Source of the DNA: Lama glama
Lineage: Eukaryota
Direction of reading: 5' to 3'
Assembly (NCBI GenBank): GCA_028534125.1
Contig: CM052816.1
Span: 2,170,001 to 2,232,000 of the forward strand
DNA length: 62,000 bases
The notes beneath the pieces are model-generated. The model did not search any database. It worked only from the letters and a program-made list of their open reading frames with translations, and was not told the DNA's origin. Position numbers and translations under genes: made by a program. The first letter of the stretch is position 1, and the number at the start of each line of letters is the position of its first letter. Positions 10,215-57,576 of the stretch are shown one piece after another.

Positions 10215-11100
10215 TGATTAGTCATTTGCATGCTCATTTTTGTTCTGTTTCTCCCTGGCAGGGTCCGTTAATTACCAAACAGGGGAGACTTAAAAAAAAA
10301 AAAAACGAAAGAAAAAACAAAACCGAGTCAGCCTTGTTTGCTAAAGTTTTGTTTTAGGTCCAGTAATTCGAATTGGCAGCGAAAGGGAAGAAACTTGCAA
10401 CAGATACACCTGACTAAGTTGCATTTCGCATTTCTAGCACTCAAAAGTACAATGCTTATGGTAATGAATTTTATCTATTACGAGGGAAAACAATCACCTT
10501 TGATGACATTATAGAATAAACACATTTAACAGCATGCTGAATTGCTGAAGTATCATTTTCAACGACCTCATTAGTGTCACTTAATTAAAACTTCCTGCTC
10601 TTGACTTTGATGCTGGTACAGGCAAAAACACAGAGGGAATTGAACAAACAACAAAAAAAGAGGGGGAGGTGTGCATTTTCTAATGATAAATCGCAGAGGT
10701 TGCTAATGAAACCAAATTATGTACCTTTTTCCTGCAACTCCGATAAAATAATATGAAACACGCAGCAACTTTGCATCAAACAAATTAATCAGCTGTCAGC
10801 AGATTTGCCTTATAATAATCTCTTGCACTTATTGATCATTTAAAAAAGAGGGGGGGGCTTTTTTTTTCTCTGTACACAAGCATTAGGTTGGTGATAATTA
10901 AAGCCTCAGCTTCAGAAATGCCATAATAACAGTTAATTAGCAGGGTGCTATTTTCAACATAATTTGCTAATTAGGCAGTGAGCTGGTGTAGTGTATATAC
11001 CTAATTATGAAGGGTCTTGTGCTGTAGACACATGTGACTGGAGTGTAAATGACACCATTATAGGGGTCCTAGCAGATTTTTTGAAAATATAGTTTGTTTA
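10215..11100. promoter_or_regulatory. Candidate conserved non-coding element / developmental enhancer
   Basis: No recognisable repeat, AT-rich, very dense TAAT/ATTA (TTAATTAA 10581-10588), octamer ATTTGCAT 10224-10231, TGTCA sites. Conservation itself was not testable. Confidence 0.6.
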
Positions 11101-25020: not shown

Positions 25021-27064
25021 GGCCAGAGCACATCTTTTGGCACTCGGCACTGGCGTCTTCCACCTCCGCTCCTTCTGCTCTTCCTTTCCCCACCTCCCCC
25101 CATCACTGCTCACGGCCAAAACCACGGCTGAGCTTTCGAAGAAACTTTTTTTGATAAACCTGGGCATCCCAACCTCCCCCCCCCACTTTTTCTTTTTCTT
25201 AAATGTAGGCACAGCTGGTAAGGGTTGATTGAAATGTTTTGCCATAGAAGCTGTGTTCATTAATTTCTTCAAGATGCTGAAGTAGGCATTAAGGTTGCCG
25301 GCTGGAGTCCTTCCCTGTGACATGTGGAACAGCAAGGGGCCTAATAGTCAGCCTTGTAACATCAACTGGTTACCCCCCTCGTGCGGCGTGAACCTTTCCC
25401 CTCCAGTGAAAAATGAACCTGTCTGAGACAAAAGCACAAACCACGCATGCAATGAGACAGTGCCATTATTCACACCCATATAGGCTGTTTTCAGAGATCA
25501 TTAAAAATCATATCTCCATGATATTAATAAGCACCTTCCCTGATCCAGGTCTCGGGTAACAGGAAGGTATATTTAGAGCCGCCCCCACCACCTACCTAAT
25601 CTGAGATCATGAATGCGGGAGGAAAAAAAAAATTCATGTAAGATAAAGGCTAACAAGCTGGTATGCTAGAAGCCACTTGGCTTTTTAAACAGCCGGTGTG
25701 TCCCAGCGTTCCTTGCTCCAGAGCTAGTCGGGGAAGAGAGAGTGTGGCCCCCAGCCACACCAAGTTGCTAGTGAGTGTTGCCTCCGTTCCTCAGGAATTA
25801 CTGATATCTGGTCTAAATGATTGGAATGAAGCATCTGCCAGCTCATTCATCTCCAAAAACTCCCACTGAATAACTGGTGACTCGTTTAGCCTGGTTTCAA
25901 GTAGACTTGCTTTTCATTTTCTGCAGTTAAACTAAAAGCTTTATTGTTTCACATACAGATATTTTATTTGCTGAGCATATTTATTTCAGTCTGTTTGTAT
26001 AGCATGAGTGCTTTCGCGGCCATATGTTATTGATTGAAAAGCCTCCACGAACTTGGATTCTGAATAGGCACTGTGTCCTTGGGAGGTGTCCGAGAGGCAG
26101 AGGCAGAGGGCCTGCCCGCTGCCGTGCCAAGCCCGTCCTGAGCTCCCTTTCTGCTGCTCTCCCTCCTCCCAGGCAATATGTAAATCAGAACTGGGGTCTG
26201 ATTCATTCTTCAGTTGTTTACATAGCCTCTCCCCAAATCTCGTGGGAGCACGCACAGAACCCTCTTTCCCCTTCTTGGGGTATAGGCACTCCTGCTAGAA
26301 TTACAAGGAACAACGCCAAGAGACCAGACTACCAAAGGCCATTTGAGAAAGCACTGATGGAAAATTCTCAGAAATCATTCAAGCCCACTGGCGTGTGTTG
26401 AGTCGGGGGAAATTTCCCCTCTGTGTAACATCTTTTCCTCCACTTAGTTTGGCTTTAGAACCATGAAAGCCCTGGTCTTAATCCTATTTCTGATGAGAGT
26501 TAATTTTCAGTGCAAGTTTTAAAAAATTTAATTGCCACTGATTACTGACATGCAATAGTAAAATAATATAAAAGAATGCCGCAAATGATTAAAGTAAAAC
26601 TTAACAACGTATGCATTAAAAAAAAATCCCATAACTCTACTTTTGTTAGGGGGGGGAATATTAAGTTGCATAATGTGACCCAGTGGTATGGGATAATTGC
26701 TTAAGAAGCTGTATTATACAGACATTTTGTATATTATATCCTCATGTGCGGTATTTCTGGTGATTAGTTCCTTAGCAGAGGGAGGCTCCCTTGAACGGAT
26801 GTTGATTATATCAGAATGTGGACCAAAAGCGATGCCAGGAATGGAGAGTGGGCACAAGTGTGCCAGCCATCCTCTGGAAACAGCGGAGAAAATGTCTCAG
26901 GAATTGCTCTGCAGTCAGCGCCCATACTGTCTGCAGGAATAACTCCTAGGTCACCTACAGAGTGCTACATATAATTTGATGGGGGCTGATATAGGGAAGG
27001 ATAGGAGTATAAGTGGTATATAAAACATGATACAGAGCTAATGAGGCAGGATTAAGCATCATAG

Positions 27065-32032: not shown

Positions 32033-32192
32033 TGGTTCTTTTTTTAATTTTTATTTTTTAATGTTTCTTTTTTTTTTCTTCAGGGGAAGGCAATCAGGCT
32101 TATTTATTTTTTAGAAGAAGTACTGGGGATTGAACCCAGGACCTCATGCATGCTAAGCATGAGCTTTACCGTGAGCTATCCCCTGCCCCCCA
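32033..32192 (-). mobile_element. Camelid tRNA-derived SINE (vic-1-like)
   Basis: Minus strand reads ggggatagctcacggtaaagctcatgcttagcatgcatgaggtcctgggttcaatccccagtac (A/B boxes) then an A-rich tail; TSD ggaaggcctctta 32020-32032 vs ggaaggcttttta 32193-32205 (11/13). Confidence 0.92.
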
Positions 32193-37730: not shown

Positions 37731-37863
37731 TTTAAATTATTATTTGGGGGGGGGGTAATTAGGTTTGTTTTTTTGTTTATTTTAGTGGCGGTACTGGGGA
37801 TGGAACCCGGGACCTCATGCATGCTAAGCATCTGCTCTGCCGCTGAGCTTTACCCTCCCTGCA
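37731..37863 (-). mobile_element. Camelid tRNA-derived SINE (vic-1-like)
   Basis: Minus strand reads gggagggtaaagctcagcggcagagcagatgcttagcatgcatgaggtcccgggttccatccccagtacc...aaacctaattacccc; perfect 14-bp TSD cttaacttcttttt at 37717-37730 and 37864-37877. Confidence 0.95.
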
Positions 37864-43560: not shown

Positions 43561-46087
43561 GTAAATGGCTGAGTTCTTTCTACCACACTCTGCTCTTTGT
43601 GAAGCTGAAGGAACAAGTAATCCTGCCAGTAAGACCATGGAGGAGGTGATACCAGGCTTGAACTTTATAGGATGGGTCAGTCTCTAGATCCACAAGTAAC
43701 TGTAGAGAGGGAGGCACTCATGATTCTTGCCTTGGGAACTTCTTCATGTCACAGAGAATAATCTGCCTCTTGACTTAACCCGGCGTAGTTTCAAGAGGTA
43801 TGAAAAAATAAATCTGAAAGGGATAAAGATGTATTTAGGTTTTAAGAGAATTTTACTTCTTTATTTCTCTACCCTCTATCTGGTATTTCCTCATGTTTGT
43901 GAATATAGATGATTTTCAAGAACCAACGGAAAAAACCTAAATACCCTGTTCCCTAACTCAAGCTCGGAAAAAGAACAGAAATCAGATTTGATTCAAATGA
44001 TACATATTCTCCCAGCCTTATAGTTTTGCATGAGAATTGCATGGGGAAATTTAAAAATTGTTTCACTATACGTAACAAATACCCTGAGGACCCTGCCATT
44101 TTTGCCTGGAACTTGGACGAGGCATTTTAGCCAGCAGGTTCATTTTTCAGGAGCGACTCTTTTTCCTTTGGTCATTTGCAGGACTTGTAGTCTTTTGGCC
44201 AGAACTGCATAAAATACATTTTAAATGAAGCTTCTCAATCCTCCCCCACCAGTACCCCACCCCCCCCTTTTTTTTTAATGACTTAAGCTTCGATTATTTT
44301 AAATGTTTTAACAGAGCCTTTTGAAGAACACCACATCTCTGCAACATTTCTCAGATAATACTGTCCTAACCCCTGGAACACAAGCCCCATTTTGAAACAG
44401 TAATTTGGTCCCTGAAGGGCCCTTCGGGCTCTGTCCTGCTGCCTGCCCAGGCTGAGCTGTCTAGGAACAGAGTCCAAGACGAGTGGGGCTGGATTTATGC
44501 AGAGTAATTTAAAGCCTCCTGCCTGTTCTTGTCTTCCTTTAGAGAATATACTTGGAAATTCATTTTCAGTCTCAAGCATTCTTGGGACACCTGATTTCGT
44601 GGTTTTTGTTTTCTTCCTTCCCCTTTGTAGGACCTTTATTAGAATGCTGATGAACCTTGGCCTCAGCAAAGGATTAAGTGAGCAGATTCTTCGAGTAATA
44701 AATCTAAAGACATATTAAAAGCAAGGAAAAGGGATTTCCCCAGTGTTTTGGAGGGGGATTTATAAGTGCCAAAGGCTAAACAACTTACAAGAGAAGTAAG
44801 ATTGCTCCTTTTTCCAACCTGGACATGTTCTAATATTGTGACACAGGGTGGAATTAAGCTGGCTTACTAAGTAGAAACATGTAACATAATTGAAAATGCA
44901 CAATTCAGAGAGGAATTCTCAGCACAGCCATGTCCTGTTGTAAAGATTACGCTGATTTATAAGGAATGCCTTAGCTCCTAATCCCAGCCATGCAAGACCA
45001 CACAGTCGAGTCTTTTATAACCAGGGAAAGAGAAGAAAGGGCTTAATAATATATTTGCCCAAAATTGAATATACATTTGGAATTGGTGGTTGAGCAGGCC
45101 ATTCATTTCTTCTAAAACAATGTAGCAATGAAAACATTTTTATTACGTTTTGACGTGTGGATTTTCAAAGAAGTTCAGGCGTTCTCTATCTCAGAAATGA
45201 TGGGTATAGCCAAATCGCGGAAGAGTAATGAAAATGAATGGTGTGTGGGGGAGAAGAATAAATACTGTGGGACATAAACTGCTTAGAAAAGATCTGCAAA
45301 GAAGAAAAGTGTCAGGCTGCTGGAAATAAAACCAAAGGAATAACCTTATGTGTAAAGTCAGGCTTAGAAAAAACTGAGGTCTAAGGGGACCTTGGAGTTC
45401 ATGCTGAGGGAGCAAAATCATCATGGCTTGAAATCAAGGATAATAAAGAATAGAAATCGAGTGCACCATTTCTTTCTTTTTCCTTTTTTTCTTTTTCTTT
45501 TTGTAAAGCATAACTTCAGGAAGAGTCGTATCATATGCTCTGATCAGTGTGGGGAATTTTGAGAGCTTGTTTGTGCATCAGGGCAACGGATTCCAGCCTT
45601 GGCCAAGCTCCAAGTGGTCTGTTGATCCTTCCCCTCTAACTTGTTCCCTTCCTACCTATGAGACGGGGAAATCAGACTTATCACTCACACCGAATTAGAT
45701 GACATGTAGGTGGGAGAAGGCGATACTGTGTGTGTGTAGGGATAAAATGGGGGGAAAGATCTTTGGAAGAGAATGTTCCCTGGTAGGCTGCACATAGTAA
45801 TTGTGCACCAGATCAATAAGGGCCACACTAGTGCATATACAAAGCAAGGAGGGTATTTGATTGCGCAGTTGGGGAAAAAATAAATAAACAAATATTTTGA
45901 AATAAAATAAAAACAAAGCCAGTATTGACCTTTGCTTCATTTGCTTTTCAGTGAGATGAAAAGAATGAAAAATAAAATGCACCCAAAGATTCCTAGTCCA
46001 TAGGAATTAGAAAGCTGTAGAGTAAGAGAGAGTTGACTACTCGAGACATTTCCAGTTTAGAACTTACTGAGCCAAGCATAGCTAATT

Positions 46088-46206
46088 TGTGTGCGTGCAG
46101 TGTCCACATACATACACACATACACGCACATGTGCAACGTGCACACATATATACATGTGTGTTCATATGTGGGCACACATATACACATGTACAGACACAC
46201 ACGCAC
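46088..46206. repeat. Degenerate (CA/TA/TG)n alternating purine-pyrimidine low-complexity tract
   Basis: catacacacatacacgcacatgtgc...acacacacgcac. Confidence 0.85.
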
Positions 46207-46303
46207 TATTTAGCTGGCTCTAGGAGAAAAAATGCCCAGAGAAATAAAGATTAGCCTGAAGCTGAGACTAGGGAAGGGGTGGCTCTGGCAATGGCAAGGC
46301 TTA

Positions 46304-46549
46304 AGCACCGAATCTACTTTAATTCCGAAGGAAATAGCAGGGGAGGGCTGCTGGGCAGATTTATTTTTTGTTTGCAGAGAATGTGCGTTGGGGGGAAAAT
46401 ACACACACATATATCAACAGGAGAGGAAAGGGGTTTTGCTACTGCAGGAGGAGGAGGAGGAGGTCCTCCTCACAGTTACAGGGGTGTGATTCCAACTGAA
46501 GCCAATTTTCATTTCACTGAGTTTTCTAACTTCAGAAGCTGGCAAAAGA
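46304..46549 (+). repeat. Copy A of an old local direct duplication
   Basis: Aligns to 48210-48451; 46335-46383 is identical (49/49) to 48241-48289; 46503-46538 matches 48405-48440 at 34/36. Confidence 0.97.
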
Positions 46550-47689
46550 TGGGAATGGTATCTTAAAAGCCAAAATAAAGCAGCGGCAAGAAGACGACTT
46601 GGGGTTTAAAAAATACCACTCCACTGCCCCCCAAATCAGAAAGCATTGTTGTGCTTAAACGAGGACAATCACAGACCCAAAACTGAGTGTGAACTGTGGG
46701 AAGTGATGTGCGTCGACATCCCCTGACGTCAGAATCATCTGTGATTCTTTTGTGGAAAAGAGACTATAAGATACCAGTTTGTTTTCTGGATTAGCTTCCT
46801 GAACGGACAGAAGGTCTGTCTGGTACTCCGAATTCAAGGCGTTTGATTTGTCTTGAACATTTCAGTCGGGGAGAGAAGATGGACAGTGGCCCTTTGAATG
46901 CCCATCATGAGATAGACGCTAGCCCAGGGTGCAGGGAAAGAACAGGGCTGCTAAGTGGCAGTAAGTCACAGCGTGAAGACTTGGCTAAAAGAAGGGCAGA
47001 ACGAATGCCATCAAAACTTGTGAAGTTTTATTTTAAAATGTTAAATAGAACACCTACACCTTCAAGAGTGACCCACACCCAAGTCAGGAGAACATGGCAT
47101 GATCTCAGAGGCAGAATATTGAAACTCTTGTCTGTTTGACACCAGGCCCAGCAGCAGGGGGGTGGGGCTGGGAGGAGGGACCAAAAACAAAGGCAGCAGA
47201 CAAAATGAAAAGTGTAAATAGAAGTACTGAGTATACAGTAACCTAGAGGAAATTACTATAATGTTGCTCTCAGCTCGTGTCTCCATTTGTAACAATGAGA
47301 AAGAAATGACTGAGGTGTGTGAGATAACGCTATAGGAGTCCCATGGTTTAGACAGGAAAAAGGCCTGTGTCTTTAGGAAAGAAAAACAAAAAACTAATAG
47401 GGGCCTGTTGGGAAGCCTGGACGGTCCTGAGGGGCATAAAGAAGTGGCCGATGGCTATTTGTTTTGGTGTCAAACATGGGATAAGGGCTTTTAAATGAAT
47501 GAGCAAATGGAGATGATCTTTGACTTTCTTCGTAGGAAAAGCATAATTACTACAAAGAGTAAAGCTCTTGTGGCCAGAACAACAGGGATTAAACAATTGA
47601 AAAATACATAAGTACATTATTTAGGGAAAAAAACAATATTGTTGGATCCCTTATAATATTCCTTGTGTGAAAGTTTTTGCTTCGCAACA

Positions 47690-47790
47690 CTCTTTTGCAT
47701 TTAGCGTATATATTTCCATTCTATTCCTCACAACAACCTGGGGGATTAGAAGGGTGAATATTATTATCTCCAATTAACAGGAGAAGAAAA
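47690..47790 (-). mobile_element. MIR fragment
   Basis: attcctcacaacaacctg, atattattatctccaattaacaggagaagaaa. Confidence 0.75.
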
Positions 47791-48209
47791 GTAGAAAAAG
47801 GGAATAGAGAAGACCTAGATTTTGCTTTGGCTGTGTTGGTAGTTCACTCTGTCTCTTCACCAATTCCCTTTATCCCTCGGGACCTTGCATCTGCAAAATA
47901 AGAGTGTTTGAGCAAATAATTGATGGGGCCTTTCAGCTCCAAATTCTAGGAATCATTGATTGCCTAGTATTCCTAATGAATGAGGGATACCGCAGGTTGA
48001 AATTCTATTTTCTTGGCTCGGCATCATCATTGCTTTTGTTGCGTTCATTCTCAAGCTTTCTACTCATCTCTGCCAACATCTCTGAGGATTCGCTCTCCCC
48101 CGCCCCATAGGCGCCATTAGGCCTGAGAGCAATTACTAGGACTTGAACACATTTACTTCTGAATTTAAACCTTAAGAAATCAAAGCAGAATGACAGTGTG
48201 AACGCCTCT

Positions 48210-48451
48210 AGTACTGAGTCTGCTTTGATCCCAAAGGCAGTAGCAGGGGAGGGCTGCTGGGCAGATTTATTTTTTGTTTGCAGAGAATGAGCGTTAGGGG
48301 GAAAATACACACACACATATCAGCAAGAAGGGAGGAGGACTTTGCTCCCGCAGGAGAAAGAAGGGCTCCTTCTCAGAGTTATTGAGGTGTATTCCTGTTG
48401 AAATCAATTTTCATTGCACTGAGCTTTCTAACTTCAGAAGTTGACGAAAGA
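48210..48451 (+). repeat. Copy B of the local direct duplication (offset about 1.9 kb)
   Basis: See copy A; same orientation, flanks about 70% identical. Confidence 0.97.
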
Positions 48452-51400
48452 AGTTAACTTCAGTTCCCACTGAAATACTAGGTTTAAATATTATCTTTAG
48501 CAGAAGTTTCAGAGTCCTTCCTTTTAGCCATATTCTGCTTACAGATGCATTCCGTTCCCCCTTACCAATTTATTGATTTGGATCCTAAGGATTCATTCAG
48601 CAGGTATTGGTCGAATGCCTTCCACTGGCCAGGCCTCTTGTATTAAGTGTTTGCATTAGCATTTTGGAATGCCAGCCACTTTCTAAAAGGTGAGCAATTT
48701 GAGGTTGTGGGAAGTCAGGGTAGTTTGGCAGAGATGCGAGCAGATCTTGCTGAGTGAGGTCCACACTTGGACAAAAACTCTAACACAGTCCATGGGAATT
48801 TGACGACTAAAGACATTGGTGAGATGGGACAGCAGAGGAAGAGAATTATTCATCATCTTTGTGGGAGAAATAGAAGAAAGGAAATTCTGCTTGCGTTGGT
48901 TAGAAGGACACATCCACGTAGAGTAGGGCAGCAGGAGGAAAATTGGACGGGCAGGTGGAAAGGAGTTAAGGAGGAAGAGAATCTTAGGTCTGCAAAGGGA
49001 GGTGGGGGTGAGTATTTCTCGGGTGCTTGAGGCCCGAGGAGAATTTGATTATGGGGGAGATAAAGGGGACTAGCCAAAATACACTGAAGCAAATTCACAT
49101 AGGGACAGAAATCAAACCTTTTGGGTTATTATTTTTTGCAACTGTGGATTTTCCATTCCAAACACATCCATACCAGTTCCATGGCCTTTAATGTAATTTG
49201 TCAAATTTTATTGGGATCTGGTGGAGGTATAAATTTTAAATTGAAGAGGCATGGTCCTAGAAAATGTTTTCTGCCAACTCACTGAACAAATTTAGCACAT
49301 TGGATGTGAACGCTTTCTGTGGTTCTGTGGGTTTATTAGCTTTGTGATCGTAGACTTGGTCCAAGTTCTTGCCCCTTAGGAATGTACACAACTTTTTCTG
49401 AGAACAATTTGGCCCACTTAACATTTTATTAGCCATAATACATGCAAGCCATAGTCCATACTATGATATTTTGATTTTTAAGTCAGACATCAAGTCCACA
49501 CTCTACATACCCAGCATGCACACATTCAAAGAAGAAAAGAAAAAAGAGTGAATTTTAAGAGCCTCTTTAATTTCTTCACCAAGAGAGAAAAATGGAAAAA
49601 TAAACTCAGAAGTAGTAACTTTCAATATATGCCGCCTTTTGTGTGCCTCTTTCGGATCAAGTAAATAATTTGCAAGGGGACAAAAGGATGTGACTTCAGC
49701 TGAGTGTTCACCTGCCAGCTCTCCTTCATGCAGTCTGATTTAGAGATTGAAGCCCAGAAATCATTCTCACTCCTCTTGCCCCCTGGAAGCGGAGAACCCA
49801 GTCGTGAGGTTAATCATTTGAATTTTGCAAGTCATATTGAGACAAAACAGAAATAATTCTTCACCTTGGACCCTGGAAATTTGTTGGCAAACTTTTTAGA
49901 GCTCAAGGTTAGACTTTTCTTCCCCTTTGAATCATAAATATGAAATGCTCTAAATATATTGTCTGATAACTCCGTCTCCCACCAAACGAGTCCCACTAGG
50001 TGATATGAAATGGAGTGGAAACCACTTCTCGAATAGCAGGTTAGAGTGGAAATGAAGAGAGGAGTGGGAAAAGGACCTCCCGACCACAGAGGGGCTGACT
50101 GAGGATGCTGGTAGAAACGGCCCATGATGGCGATTATTCAAAACAGTAACTTCCTCATAAGCTCTTCTTCAGAGTTGCCTCGAACAGTTTATAAGGTTAG
50201 TGATCTAAGTTATTACATATGAAAATGAGGTTAAAGCCATTTCTGATCAACAGGACATTCCGGAGACGAGCCTGAGCATAAAGCTTATTAATTCTACAAC
50301 GTTACAGGTGTACGTCAGGAGGTACCGTGGCTCTTTCTGAAGAAGCTCTGTGTAAATCGAAATCTATTTTTTGAATCTAGGGAAATTAAACTGTGGTAAC
50401 TTTTGGTAAATTTTGATGTGCACATTGTTGATAAAGAAAGGCTGAATCTTTGGCCTGCCTGTTAGCACCTAGCAGAAATCCATGTATCTGCTAATTTTGT
50501 CGATTGTCATGGTCAAATCAGAATGGGGAGTTGTGGTCTTATAAATCAAAGAAAGTCATGAGAACAGAACAGAAGGATTCAATTTGCTCATTGAAAAAAG
50601 TGAAAAGACAGTCATTGGAAAAAAAAAGTTTATTTAGTATTAACTTGCTTTTGCCAGCCAGGGTACCCGAAAGAGACTGAATATTTGAATTGGGATCTTT
50701 GAAAAATGTAGGTTTGTACATCGATGGTGTCCCTTTTTCAAATGTAAAGTTTCCTTTTGTAAAGAGAATGTTCTTCCATCCTCTCTCTGTTTTGGAATTA
50801 AAACAAATACTCATTTTTCCCAAAGTGGCTGTATTTAATCTCTTAGTGGTGAAGCGGCACTACCTTATAAAGATGTTGCGTGAGGGTTAAATCTTTTTTT
50901 TTGTTTTATTTTAAAGAGAAACAGAAACATCATGGACTTGAAATTAGTTTGAGATTGACATAGACTCTGTGATTGGAATTCCCTACGACAAACACCCTCC
51001 TTGATCCCCAAATCTGAACAGAAATGCTTGAACCCGAGGAACATGGCTGTGAGTCTCCTGGACTTGGAAGCCCTCATATACAAAGCGAATGCCCATCCGC
51101 CTAACTTGGAATGTTACACTTTAGATGTAGCGTGGAATTTGTCAGTTATGGATGAGTCTTGCTGGAAGACACAGAGCGTCTGGCTTTAGATCAGCCCCTG
51201 ATTTGCCAATGCAGCGCACGCCTGTTGGGTTTCTGAAATTTGTGGTTTAGCTTGCTGGTCCCTCCTGCTTTTCCAGTGCCACATGCTGATGACAGAAATG
51301 CCTCACGTTATGACTTTTCTTCTCAGAGGCCGCATAGGTAACAGGTATATCTTTGCAGGTCGCCTAGGGGGCAGGCGTTGGTGGGTCCTGTTGAAGGTCT

Positions 51401-52830: not shown

Positions 52831-55493
52831 GTTTTATTAACTACCCATGTAGCTCGGGTACATGTTTATCTACACTGATGTGCGTGTATATAAAAGTGAA
52901 GGAAGACTGTCAGAAGAAAAAGAGACATTCATTTTTGAAATACATTACATATATATGTCTATACATGTATGTATATGAACACATACGTGATACACATATT
53001 TCCCAAAACGGGTGTTCTCTTTTTTTTGCATGGCCTCCCTTCACTTTTTCCAACATTATATATATTTTTTTTTGAAGAAAAGAAGATTGATAGGATCAAT
53101 GTTGGTGGTTGCAGGCATTTTATCAGCTTGTAGATGGTCTTCTCCTCCATAAAGAAATAATAAAAAAGATGAAGGAGAAAAGAAACAAAAAAGATTGAAA
53201 ATGGAAACAGAGTCATTTGCCTCCTCCTTTCTCCCCCCCAAAGCCAATGTCCTTACCCACAGATCAGTAAATTTCTAACACCGTCATGCAGGTTCATGCA
53301 TGAACGGCAGTGCTGTGTGACATCTCAGGGTGTCCACGTGGGGCTGGGTGCTCGACAATGTGTGACATGACTGTGTGTATTGCTCTGTGAATATCCTTGT
53401 GTTAGTGGAACGCCCTCCTGGAGAAGACAGGTCAACAGACCACTGTCTTTGTAGTCCAAAATCAATTGCATCTCTACGAATTATTGAGTTGTTTGCCATT
53501 GCTTTGCTGTCCTTTTTTATTATAAGGGCTCGTTATTATGATACAGTTGGATAAGGATTTGTTTTCCTTCAAGAAACCTGGTGTGTTTTTGTCTTGTGGA
53601 TTGTCACAAAATGATGAGGAGTGTCCACCTTCTTCCTCACCTCTCTTTCCAGCTTGAGCATTTTAAATGTTCCAGTACTTGGATTCAGCCCTTCTCTGGT
53701 TGAGCATGAAGCTCCTAGCACATGGCAGCCCAGAAGATGTGGCAAGCTCTAGGGGCTCGAACTCATTTTAAGGAGAAAACACTCATTTTTCCTGTGACAA
53801 CAAGCATGACATTCACATGCCTGCGTCCAGCACCATCTTGCAGCTTTTGTACCAAACAGAGATGTTACTAAATGAACATTTCTTGCTCTTGTGTAAATAG
53901 ATAGATTAATGGCATTAAGTGAACGCCAAGGCTGCCTGAAATGTTAACTTCCTTATGGGGTTTTGAGTTTCTCTTATTTTTGATAAATGGACCAATCTGG
54001 CAATAAAAATCCTTGCACAGTAGGTTAATAATGTCATAGCTGAACTGTGAAATAGTAATGTGTGTACTATCTCTCAGCAAACAATAATCCTTGAAGCCTG
54101 ATAAATCTATTTCCAGCCCAATTGCTGTTCATTGTTACCCACGACTCCTCCTTTGCAAACACAGAGCAGTTTTGTCACGTGCATTTTTAAGCAGAGGCAT
54201 CCGGGAAGGCAAGGCACATGGGCCAGTGAAGGCAGGGGGAGACAGGTTTCTTTTCAGCTCGCCTGAGCCCCTGCTGCCCTCTGTGCCTAAAGACCCTCCT
54301 CAGGCTTCCTGCCTTGCTGGTATGGGGGTGGGGGGCGCTGTGTAACCTTCCAGTCCTTCTGGTGCCCAAAGCACGGTTGTGCGGCTGCAGGCAGAGAAGG
54401 ATTGGGATCTAGGAAGAAAAATCTCCCCCCAGGTGCTTCAGTTTTCATTGATCACTTAGTAGCAGGCAAGGTTTGGTGCTGTTTACCCCAAATCCCTGAT
54501 GACAAGAGAGGCGATGGAGAGGCTTCTCCACACTGGCTTCCTGTAGAGCTGGGAATACAGAATCTGGCAAATGTCTTCAGACAGCCCGCAGCACACACAG
54601 ACTGCGTGCAGAACACTTCAGCGCCGCGATTCTAAACAAAAGACAGCCAAATACCCTCTTGGTACTAAAACAGGAGGTGGGGGGTGGGGTGGGGAAGGGA
54701 GTTGCCCCTCCCCCGTCTTTGGCCAGTGGTGGGCAACTCCAAGGTAAAAAGTACACTGTGCTGGTGAGAAAGAGAACCCTGTCCCAAATCACGGCTGATT
54801 TGGAGGGAATTATTTAAGCATCAGAATCTAAGTAGCTTGGGGCACTGCACATAAACTTGACAAACAGGCTACTTTAGTCCTGTCTGACTGTATCAGCATA
54901 ATAGGGCAATGAAGCTTTTATTCATTCAAAGAAAGGTTGAGTTTGATTGGCAGGGCAGGCTGCCTGCACGCAAGTGGCTCTTTTCCCCAACACTTCACTG
55001 CTATCAATTACCGTTTTGAATACGAAGTGTTTCTAATGTAAAATAATGCCAACCTCTGCCTCTATCCTCAGGCCAGAAAGCTTCTTTGTGTTATTTATTC
55101 CCAGTCTGTGACTGCTCTGAACCTTCCTCTCTCTGCTGTTTGTCCCCTCCCCTCTTCTTCTTCCCTTTCAGTGTTTAAAAGATGTAACGTTGCCAGCAGA
55201 AGTGAGGTTCATGCAGAAAACATTCCTGTTCTTTATTTTAATCAATAACCTCCTGGGTGAATGACATTTCCACCTTCATGATTTAAAATCAGAAGATCTG
55301 GGGATGTCCGTGCTTGTGAATCACCCCAGGTTCCAGGAACAAAGGAGGCATTTTTGTTTTTCGTAATTTCCCCTTCGCACTGCAAACAACTGGGCTCTGA
55401 AGTTGATTTCATTTAGCAGTCAACTTCTGTCTAGAAAAATGTGCGCAACTGAACTGAACGCTGTTCTTATTTAAATCGGCAAGTGATTTGCTT

Positions 55494-55513
55494 TAGCTGC
55501 CATCTGTTGGCCG
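55494..55513 (-). promoter_or_regulatory. Candidate CTCF site
   Basis: Minus strand CGGCCAACAGATGGCAGCTA has one mismatch to CCASYAGRKGGCRS; a local cluster of CpGs is retained. Confidence 0.5.
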
Positions 55514-56972
55514 GTTCGCTATTTTAATTTGATGCCGGGACATTACCTGACTTTGTATATTGCATTTTGATCTGCATCATGTTTGAGAAATGTCTGAAAA
55601 TGATTCTAAGGGAGAGGACTTTGAAGGGTTCTGTTGAACAAATATGTACATATGTTAATACAGCGCTGGGCGTACAAGGGTGGTAACACACAACTGTGTA
55701 TATATACAGACAGCACGTCTTATGTCTTACCTAATAATCTTTATGTCCAGATTGATAATAAGTCCTTCAAACTTTGCTTTCTCCCACAATTTCCAACTAG
55801 CTCTCCCTCATTTAAAAATCCTTAACTTTAACTTTCACGATATCCTCACCCACTTTTCTGAAGCCGCAGTTTCTCTTGTTTGAAACTCTTTTGAGCAAGG
55901 CTTGGATGGCGGGGACAGCATGGTCTAGGACCTGTGTACCCCTGAGGTCTGCATGTGAACAAAAGACCCTCTCTTCTTTCCTCTCTCAGAGTCCCCAGAG
56001 TTTGATGGTATTTATGGAGATCCTCCTAAAAGAGGCAGCAGGGCAGTTTGAAGAATGTGTAGGGTGAGGCGTCAACAGGCCTGGATTTTCGTTGGTGGCT
56101 GAGCTTCCTGCGGCTGATTAGCTGCGTGAGGCTGGCCAGTCATCGAGCCCATCCGCACCTCCATCATACTGGGGACTCTCTGACTGCCCTTGCTTCCTGC
56201 CCTCATGGTCCAGAGAGCCTGCTTTAGGAGAGGGAGAGAAAGGAAGTCATGTGGACCTATCTCTGCCCCCAAGTGTTTCACAATCTTAAGACCACACGGA
56301 TTATTCATATTCAAAACACATTTTAGAACCACTGGGGCTAATCCTGTGCTGGATGGTCCTCCTCTCTGTTTTTTTTCTCTCCTCACTAATAAACTTCCTG
56401 CAACTTTTGAAAAAATTTTTTTTTCTCAGCCACACCTTTCACGGGATGTTAATTTCTCTATAAGTTTCTTCCTAAGAGTCTCTGTTATATTTACTCTGTG
56501 CCTTTCTTTTCTCCCAGTCATTAATTCAGGTAGAAGCACCCAAGGGTGTTTCCACTGGAACTTTCCTCTCTCGGAAAGCTTCTTTGCCAAACTCACCTTG
56601 ATGCATGCAATTCTCCCTTGGGCACGTGCGCGTATACATGCTACGTAAGACTGAATTCTGTTTGGCCACGCTGAAGACACAGGAAGTGCCTCCAGTTTCT
56701 ATGTTCACCATCGTGACCACTGATCACATTTAAGTGCCAGACTTCATACTGTTCAGACCAGCCACCCAACTCCAGGGACTTATGCACAAAACACTCCAGC
56801 AACAGCAGGGACACAGGAATCAGGGAAGAGTGAATAAGGGAACATACACTGGACAGAATAAAACTGAGTTTTAGTTTCAAATTTGGAATGATGGGAATCG
56901 ATGCTTTTCTTCCATTTATTGGACTTTAGGGGTATGTGAAGAAATTTGGGCTGGTTAAGAGTAGAAATGGGT

Positions 56973-57546: not shown

Positions 57547-57576
<30 letters not shown>
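57547..57576. repeat. (GCA)10 trinucleotide repeat (CAG/CTG family)
   Basis: Read directly. Confidence 0.98.

Follow-up and report, generated by a model that had tools for sequence, protein, structure and literature searches.

Why should two neighbouring copies of a non-coding sequence, about 80% identical over some 260 bp of camelid DNA, contain two short tracts in which they are nearly indistinguishable? The copies lie in a stretch of 62,000 nucleotides from Lama glama (assembly GCA_028534125.1, contig CM052816.1, positions 2,170,001 to 2,232,000), hereafter the window, to which all coordinates refer unless stated otherwise. A sequence-only reading of the window had attributed the near-identity either to purifying selection on both copies, as a duplicated enhancer or RNA element, or to local gene conversion. 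Both candidate processes are already known: enhancer-like pairs born of duplication are frequent, and there is ample literature on interlocus conversion. A search of openly accessible papers gave no description of the twin element, which may already carry an annotation somewhere, perhaps as a cCRE or a repeat.

Extent and patchiness of the duplication

Copy A (46286..46549, plus strand, 264 bp) and copy B (48191..48451, plus strand, 261 bp) stand in direct orientation, and the spacing of 1906 bp given earlier was reproduced. The duplication, previously put at about 245 bp, is real, but its homology reaches slightly further than had been supposed. Copy A is collinear with other mammals on either side, outgroup open reading frames (ORFs) aligning across it and into its unique flanks, and given this collinearity it is probably the parent position. 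The 264 alignment columns contain 52 difference events between A and B. Block 1 (46335..46409 in A, 48241..48315 in B, both plus strand) is identical at 73 of 75 positions and begins with an exact 49-mer (46335-46383 in A, from 48241 in B) that is the longest exact match between the copies; block 2 (46503..46538 in A, 48405..48440 in B, again plus strand) is identical at 34 of 36, and the 5' flank at only 22 of 31. These counts came out the same when repeated, and the linker of A (46410..46502, plus strand) is, as reported, purine-rich and diverged, with a 3-nt repeat expansion in A and a 1-nt deletion in B; its copy-specific changes are skewed from A/T to G/C.

The earlier contention that such patchiness departs from uniform decay is borne out. 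Substitutions between A and B number 4/111 in the blocks versus 44/145 outside them, and in 200,000 permutations the probability of a run of at least 49 matches was 2.7e-4 and that of a 75-column window with at most two differences 2.5e-5. CpG decay is not the source of the pattern, because just 4 of the 48 substitutions are of CpG type. Old MIR-like copies elsewhere in the window served as a control; the 22 of 78 pairs of these that aligned over at least 70 columns had a median identity of 0.60 and a longest exact run of no more than 14.

The 62-kb window contains no third copy, and no homology was detected on either side outside the ~260 bp, by shuffle controls and by 400-bp tiles compared with a reverse-complement null on the 1906 diagonal. 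The duplicated unit was therefore ~260 bp and not 1.9 kb, since A's flank and outgroup sequence can still be aligned across hundreds of bases and the flanks of A and B do not align to each other; a 1.9-kb tandem duplication was rejected on the same ground. Across the right end of B, at 48438-48462, lies an inverted repeat with a 9-bp stem, which may be a template-switch scar or due to chance. Just upstream of A only, a tract of ~120 bp of alternating purines and pyrimidines (CA/TA/TG; 46083..46205) draws sub-threshold Rfam matches and no others.

The arrangement recalls two long terminal repeats (LTRs) of an old LTR element, with 260-bp repeats and a 1.64-kb interior, dimensions that we take to be MaLR-like, or else two copies of an interspersed repeat. 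Direct orientation and size fit such an origin, both copies start with TG and an AATAAA is present. However, neither a target-site duplication nor terminal inverted repeats stand out above background (an old target-site duplication may have decayed), the ORFs of the spacer have no Pfam match, no further copy occurs in the 62 kb, and all 17 of the protein-level matches described below continue into the flank unique to A, not into flanks of unrelated sequence. The spacer also contains a weak SINE fragment (47704..47789, minus strand; nhmmer E 0.048), presumably of the MIR family and absent at +/-1906 bp, which counts weakly in the same direction. An origin as LTRs or interspersed repeats is most improbable.

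Orthologues of copy A in other mammals

Outgroup sequence was obtained through protein collections. The minus-frame translation of A matched P0004 (phmmer, E 6.7e-5), a 185-aa ORF from one ENA contig that aligns to 46860-46333 of the window at E 6e-62 and that is, to judge from this alignment, a spurious gene call spanning the orthologue of copy A together with unique flank. P0004 led to two further clusters, P0006/8/9 and P0007/P0010-21. Six of the 17 proteins were placed on the window by frameshift-aware alignment and the other 11 were judged by their near-identity to those six. We refer to P0004 (46860-46305) as outgroup 1, to P0008/9, with P0006, (~46645-46256) as outgroup 2 and to P0010 and P0019 (47011-46317) as outgroup 3. 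We take these three mammal-like outgroups to carry orthologues of A, because all of the proteins run into A's unique flank (46550..47011), which is alignable to the outgroup ORFs and of which 46550-46860 served as a local rate control. Over 121 flank sites the branch lengths are 17 on the camelid side, 7 for outgroup 1/2 and 17 for outgroup 3, which resemble neutral values for camelids against cetaceans and ruminants, an assignment that is our guess.

Other searches were negative within their scope. Exact-pattern scans of JGI metagenomes, IMG/VR and GTDB gave 0 matches; the plus-frame ORF matched no protein when queried at longer lengths; and a protein search with B's minus-frame ORF (near lengths) also gave none, this last search having missed proteins that were found later. 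Among ATAC sequencing runs, a query with 46280-46800 listed none, which counts as evidence in neither direction. P0005, a fish Ig-domain protein (E 2.6e-4), was set aside as a chance match.

Outgroup bases were inferred from protein translations, so that about 65-70% of sites are visible per lineage and all counts are small. Within block 1, outgroup 1 shows 5 visible differences from the state shared by camelid A and B (A=B), 3 of them within the 49-mer; outgroup 2 shows 3 visible differences and a 1-nt deletion; and outgroup 3 shows 7 visible differences and two indels, one of which is polymorphic within the cluster (P0016/19/20 versus P0010). All three outgroups differ from A=B inside the 49-mer, two of them by indels, and orthologues of A differ within both blocks. 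The expectation of a core invariant across species thus fails, each outgroup having 3-7 substitutions visible in block 1, with as many as two indels besides. At A=B sites, differences from outgroups 1 and 3 amount to 12 of 93 scorable sites in the blocks, 13/67 outside them and 65/270 in the flank, so that relative to the flank the blocks are mildly, about 2-fold, slowed across lineages (fitted factor about 0.4-0.5). The states in which A=B is unlike all three outgroups lie at 46346, 46408 and 46515 within the blocks, all three being changes from A/T to G/C, and at 46331, 46418 and 46470 outside; as densities, shared A=B changes stand at 3/51 in the blocks versus 3/33 outside.

In a sub-core at 46357..46400, the translations of all three outgroups would allow a FOX-type site, CATTCT, AATAAA and GGAAAA, which we assigned by consensus; 14 codons are unchanged in outgroups 1 and 2, and outgroup 3 has several changes. 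Both copies do contain the two motifs singled out earlier, the FOX-type site and an AATAAA on the minus strand, but these motifs are common, with 141 and 121 matches in the window, respectively. A KLF/SP-like G-box on the plus strand (46340..46347 in A, 48246-48253 in B) is common to the two camelid copies and broken at 46346 in all three outgroups. A full CRE palindrome at 46724-46731, 175 bp past A, was rejected as part of the element, as it is not kept in outgroups 1 or 3. A twin core promoter on the minus strand was also considered, in which AATAAA would stand ~30 bases short of the end of the block; its initiator-like site is not the same in A and B.

These comparisons bear on the leading suggestion of the earlier reading, namely the same strong purifying selection on both copies across mammals. 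The lower divergence of the blocks than of the flank and the unchanged codon-equivalents of block 1 speak for it, but all three outgroups carry block-1 substitutions, outgroups 2 and 3 carry indels, and the corresponding model fits poorly (see below). We regard pan-mammalian constraint of this kind on copy A as largely refuted by the orthologues and as quite improbable; the patchy near-identity points instead to a property of the camelid pair, not to an element frozen across mammals.

A coding origin, as a duplicated coding exon, a micro-ORF or a spliced cryptic exon, can be weighed on the same alignments. In one codon phase fall 15/28 substitutions, pN/pS is 0.28 in one minus frame, in which both block-1 differences are synonymous, and the plus strand of block 1 contains an acceptor-like T-tract followed by AG. 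The phase bias, however, has a corrected P of 0.06; both copies have an in-frame stop just upstream, an ATG is found in A only, and the matching plus frame is interrupted by a stop in B; frameshifts occur within the block in the outgroups, and the AG at 46377 is missing from outgroup 3; and there is no named protein homologue. A coding origin is barely credible, the least probable of the readings considered here. The proposal of an RNA element likewise found no backing, as the twins gave no gathering-level Rfam match (one sub-threshold bacterial match, in A only) and eight folds had z-scores of -2.4 to +0.6, with no stable fold common to both copies.

Age of the duplication and base bias

Polarised by the outgroups, the differences between A and B outside the blocks comprise 20 B-specific and 19 A-specific changes, with 5 left unassigned, so the outgroups agree with A at 20 sites and with B at 19. 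A duplication far older than the split between the outgroups and camelids would give an excess of B-specific changes, and a hand count of 21/41, with a 95% interval up to 0.67, limits the age to at most ~1.5x that of the split. We infer that the duplication took place at about the time of this split or later, and it may be camelid-specific. Within the blocks the same polarisation gives 0 changes in B (against 20 outside), there being zero B-specific changes at the polarisable sites of its block 1, and 2-3 in A (against 19).

Copy-specific changes are biased in direction: 26 run from A/T to G/C versus 9 in reverse, or 22:8 without CpG contexts, and the corresponding count in A's unique flank is 6:9 (Fisher P 0.03 versus the duplicate). 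Shared A=B changes run 5:1 towards G/C. This skew hints, weakly, at a recombination-active site. Interlocus conversion explains the shared skew and not the copy-specific one; the latter, which involves few sites, would be explained by allelic biased conversion acting locally where recombination is active.

Location of the twins

The twins probably lie in intron 6 of EBF1, a regulator in B cells, adipocytes and neurons. This placement derives from neighbouring genes and human coordinates, at a steady scale near 0.72, by which the window would correspond to human chr5:158.8-159.0 Mb; this region belongs to intron 6, a large one, and the plus strand would be the EBF1 sense strand. Human coordinates of ultraconserved elements (UCEs; PMC11276968), when matched in the expected orientation to AT-rich stretches of the window, put the twins at ~158.889-158.892 Mb (hg38), wrong-orientation placements scoring equally. 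The stretches that are AT- and TAAT-rich and UCE-looking (24640-25500, 10480-11040, 18450-18760 and 55380-55600) have roughly the spacing of the EBF1 intron-6 UCEs, with the same equality of scores for wrong orientations.

EBF1 contains 43 UCEs (PMC11276968), none of those listed lying between 158,882,226 and 158,914,248, where the twins are tentatively placed, and it has intronic enhancers (PMC7746190). Three probes of mouse Ebf1 enhancers gave no match in the window, the best reaching 20 of 30-33 bases. Ten short EBF1 peptide motifs had 0 matches in its six frames, and none of the 142 ORFs from 39,988 onward, among 390 stop-to-stop ORFs of at least 55 aa in the window, matched Pfam. Gathering-level Rfam matches were limited to two tRNA-derived SINEs. 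These two elements, at 32115-32184 and 37786-37857, are 82.5% alike over 80 bp, score as tRNA in Rfam and are presumably of a camelid type. A perfect (GCA)10 occurs at 57547-57576, in the same probable intron.

Gene conversion or selection

Six Poisson models were compared by AIC, using substitutions only. A model with no patch was the poorest (AIC 105.2), followed by equal constraint on all branches (90.5), neutral conversion (85.0), constraint on the camelid copies plus a shared part (83.6) and constraint on the camelid copies alone (82.1); the best of the six combined conversion with shared constraint, fitted at 0.52 (80.4). Joint probabilities came from simulations that choose blocks post hoc with parameters near the fits and hence represent best cases: equal constraint reached at most 0.015 (over six constraint values) and neutral conversion 0.02, against 0.28 when constraint was confined to the camelid copies and 0.32 when conversion was joined to constraint. 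Equal constraint in all lineages therefore fits ~20-fold worse than either conversion with mild constraint or camelid-only constraint, and the latter two are not separable with these data. Of the explanations offered by the sequence-only reading, local gene conversion remains a candidate, with the best AIC when joined to shared constraint, and purifying selection on both copies survives in its lineage-restricted form but not in its pan-species form.

Conversion without selection, in which a functionless duplicate underwent one or two late conversion events, is ahead of equal constraint by AIC, but it expects more shared A=B changes than were observed, as its joint probability reflects, and it is very unlikely.

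Lineage-restricted selection on twin enhancers deserves more weight. Under this reading both camelid copies keep the blocks at ~0.14 of the background rate, either because camelids gained a function, or a stronger one, along their own lineage or because the duplication just preceded the split and other lineages let A drift while keeping or losing B. Its AIC and joint probability, the near-absence of polarised block changes in B and A, the lack of enrichment of shared A=B changes in the blocks, the confinement of the G-box to the camelid pair and the wealth of UCEs (PMC11276968) and intronic enhancers (PMC7746190) at EBF1 are all in its favour. Against it, the very bases supposedly under strong constraint are substituted or hit by indels in the three orthologues of A, and 49 invariant bases are more than a few short motifs account for. 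Such selection is a close rival of the conversion reading given next, though one that we rather doubt. A more specific version, in which the twins form a candidate camelid regulatory element in an EBF1 intron, with ~110 bases, the G-box among them, frozen in both copies and the remainder driven to G/C by local recombination, is unlikely in our judgement, though far from negligible.

The explanation to which we lean, while giving it somewhat less than an even chance, is short-tract interlocus gene conversion sustained where mild selection kept identity high. On this model a ~260-bp piece of mildly constrained intronic DNA, probably a weak enhancer module of EBF1 intron 6, would have given rise to a second copy 1.9 kb downstream, at about the time when camelids split from the sampled outgroups or later; the extent and symmetry of this step are seen directly, and its locus and timing would follow from the placement and polarisation given above. 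As the copies diverged, two tracts evolving about half as fast in all lineages would have remained similar, and these may then have been overwritten from copy to copy by short-tract conversion, which we propose as the reason why camelid A and B share states that other mammals lack. A recombination-active site, faintly suggested by the excess of A/T to G/C changes, might supply the breaks. Any regulatory role would be that of a modest FOX/TEAD/NFAT-type module, as far as motifs indicate, and not of an ultraconserved element. The tracts have two marks expected of conversion, in that local identity exceeds uniform decay and the A=B states at 46346, 46408 and 46515 are absent from orthologues. Against this model, constraint confined to the camelid copies fits nearly as well; the blocks are not enriched in shared A=B changes, whose density conversion alone would raise, so that conversion fits only together with about 2-fold constraint; two separate tracts, of 75 and 36 bp, are required, both shorter than the efficient minimum in rodent cells (see below); and the G/C skew at copy-specific sites does not follow from interlocus conversion itself.

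Relation to known systems

Interlocus conversion of the kind proposed has parallels. Conversion among neighbouring Alus of ~300 bp within 10 kb has been described (PMC8230782, citing Aleshin and Zhi), and in human duplicates conversion is GC-biased, with 61% weak-to-strong changes in converted tracts and a mean tract of 250 bp (10.1101/135152). The twins resemble both systems as direct repeats of similar size and spacing and in that their high-identity tracts carry states absent from orthologues, and they resemble the biased conversion of 10.1101/135152 in that 5/6 of their shared changes are to G/C. Unlike Alus (PMC8230782), they are a two-copy unique sequence and not a repeat family, and conversion here would be read from the pattern of shared states. 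In rodent cells the minimal efficient segment is near 200 bp and conversion drops strongly at ~80% identity (PMC3924818); the tracts of the twins, of 75 and 36 bp, fall below that minimum, in surroundings only ~70% identical. Purifying selection can, however, prolong conversion (PMC3924837).

Duplication-born shadow enhancers offer the other comparison. In mouse, duplication signatures occur in 33.9% of 9,051 shadow-enhancer sets, and 31.5% of body-hit pairs are without flank homology (PMC13345019). Like such enhancers (PMC13345019, PMC7093719), the twins are a nearby homologous non-coding pair lacking flank homology at a probable developmental regulator locus; unlike them, they are known from sequence alone, and their near-identity is limited to the pair of one lineage. 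With the UCEs of the EBF1 locus (PMC11276968) they share what is probably the same intron and short near-invariant tracts between paralogues, but their blocks are shorter than 100 bp and are not 97% identical to other mammals. Their probable EBF1-intronic location is also reminiscent of the mouse Ebf1 +270/+280 kb C/EBP enhancers, which differ in lying across exons 7-9 (PMC7746190).

For those who scan sequence for function, this locus is a caution, as the near-identity of local copies mimicked deep conservation while being largely a property of one lineage's pair; it also illustrates that spurious gene calls in protein collections can serve as outgroup sequence for non-coding DNA. If conversion is the true explanation, the twins would represent natural homogenization of 36-75-bp tracts between copies ~70% identical nearby, well below the textbook minimum, and, once confirmed, would offer a clean test of how short or diverged a repeat can be homogenized in the mammalian germ line. 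If the more specific camelid-only reading is true, selection and biased conversion would be at work side by side in one short duplicate, and confirmation of such selection would make the twins a candidate for a lineage-specific dosage change in EBF1 regulation in camelids.
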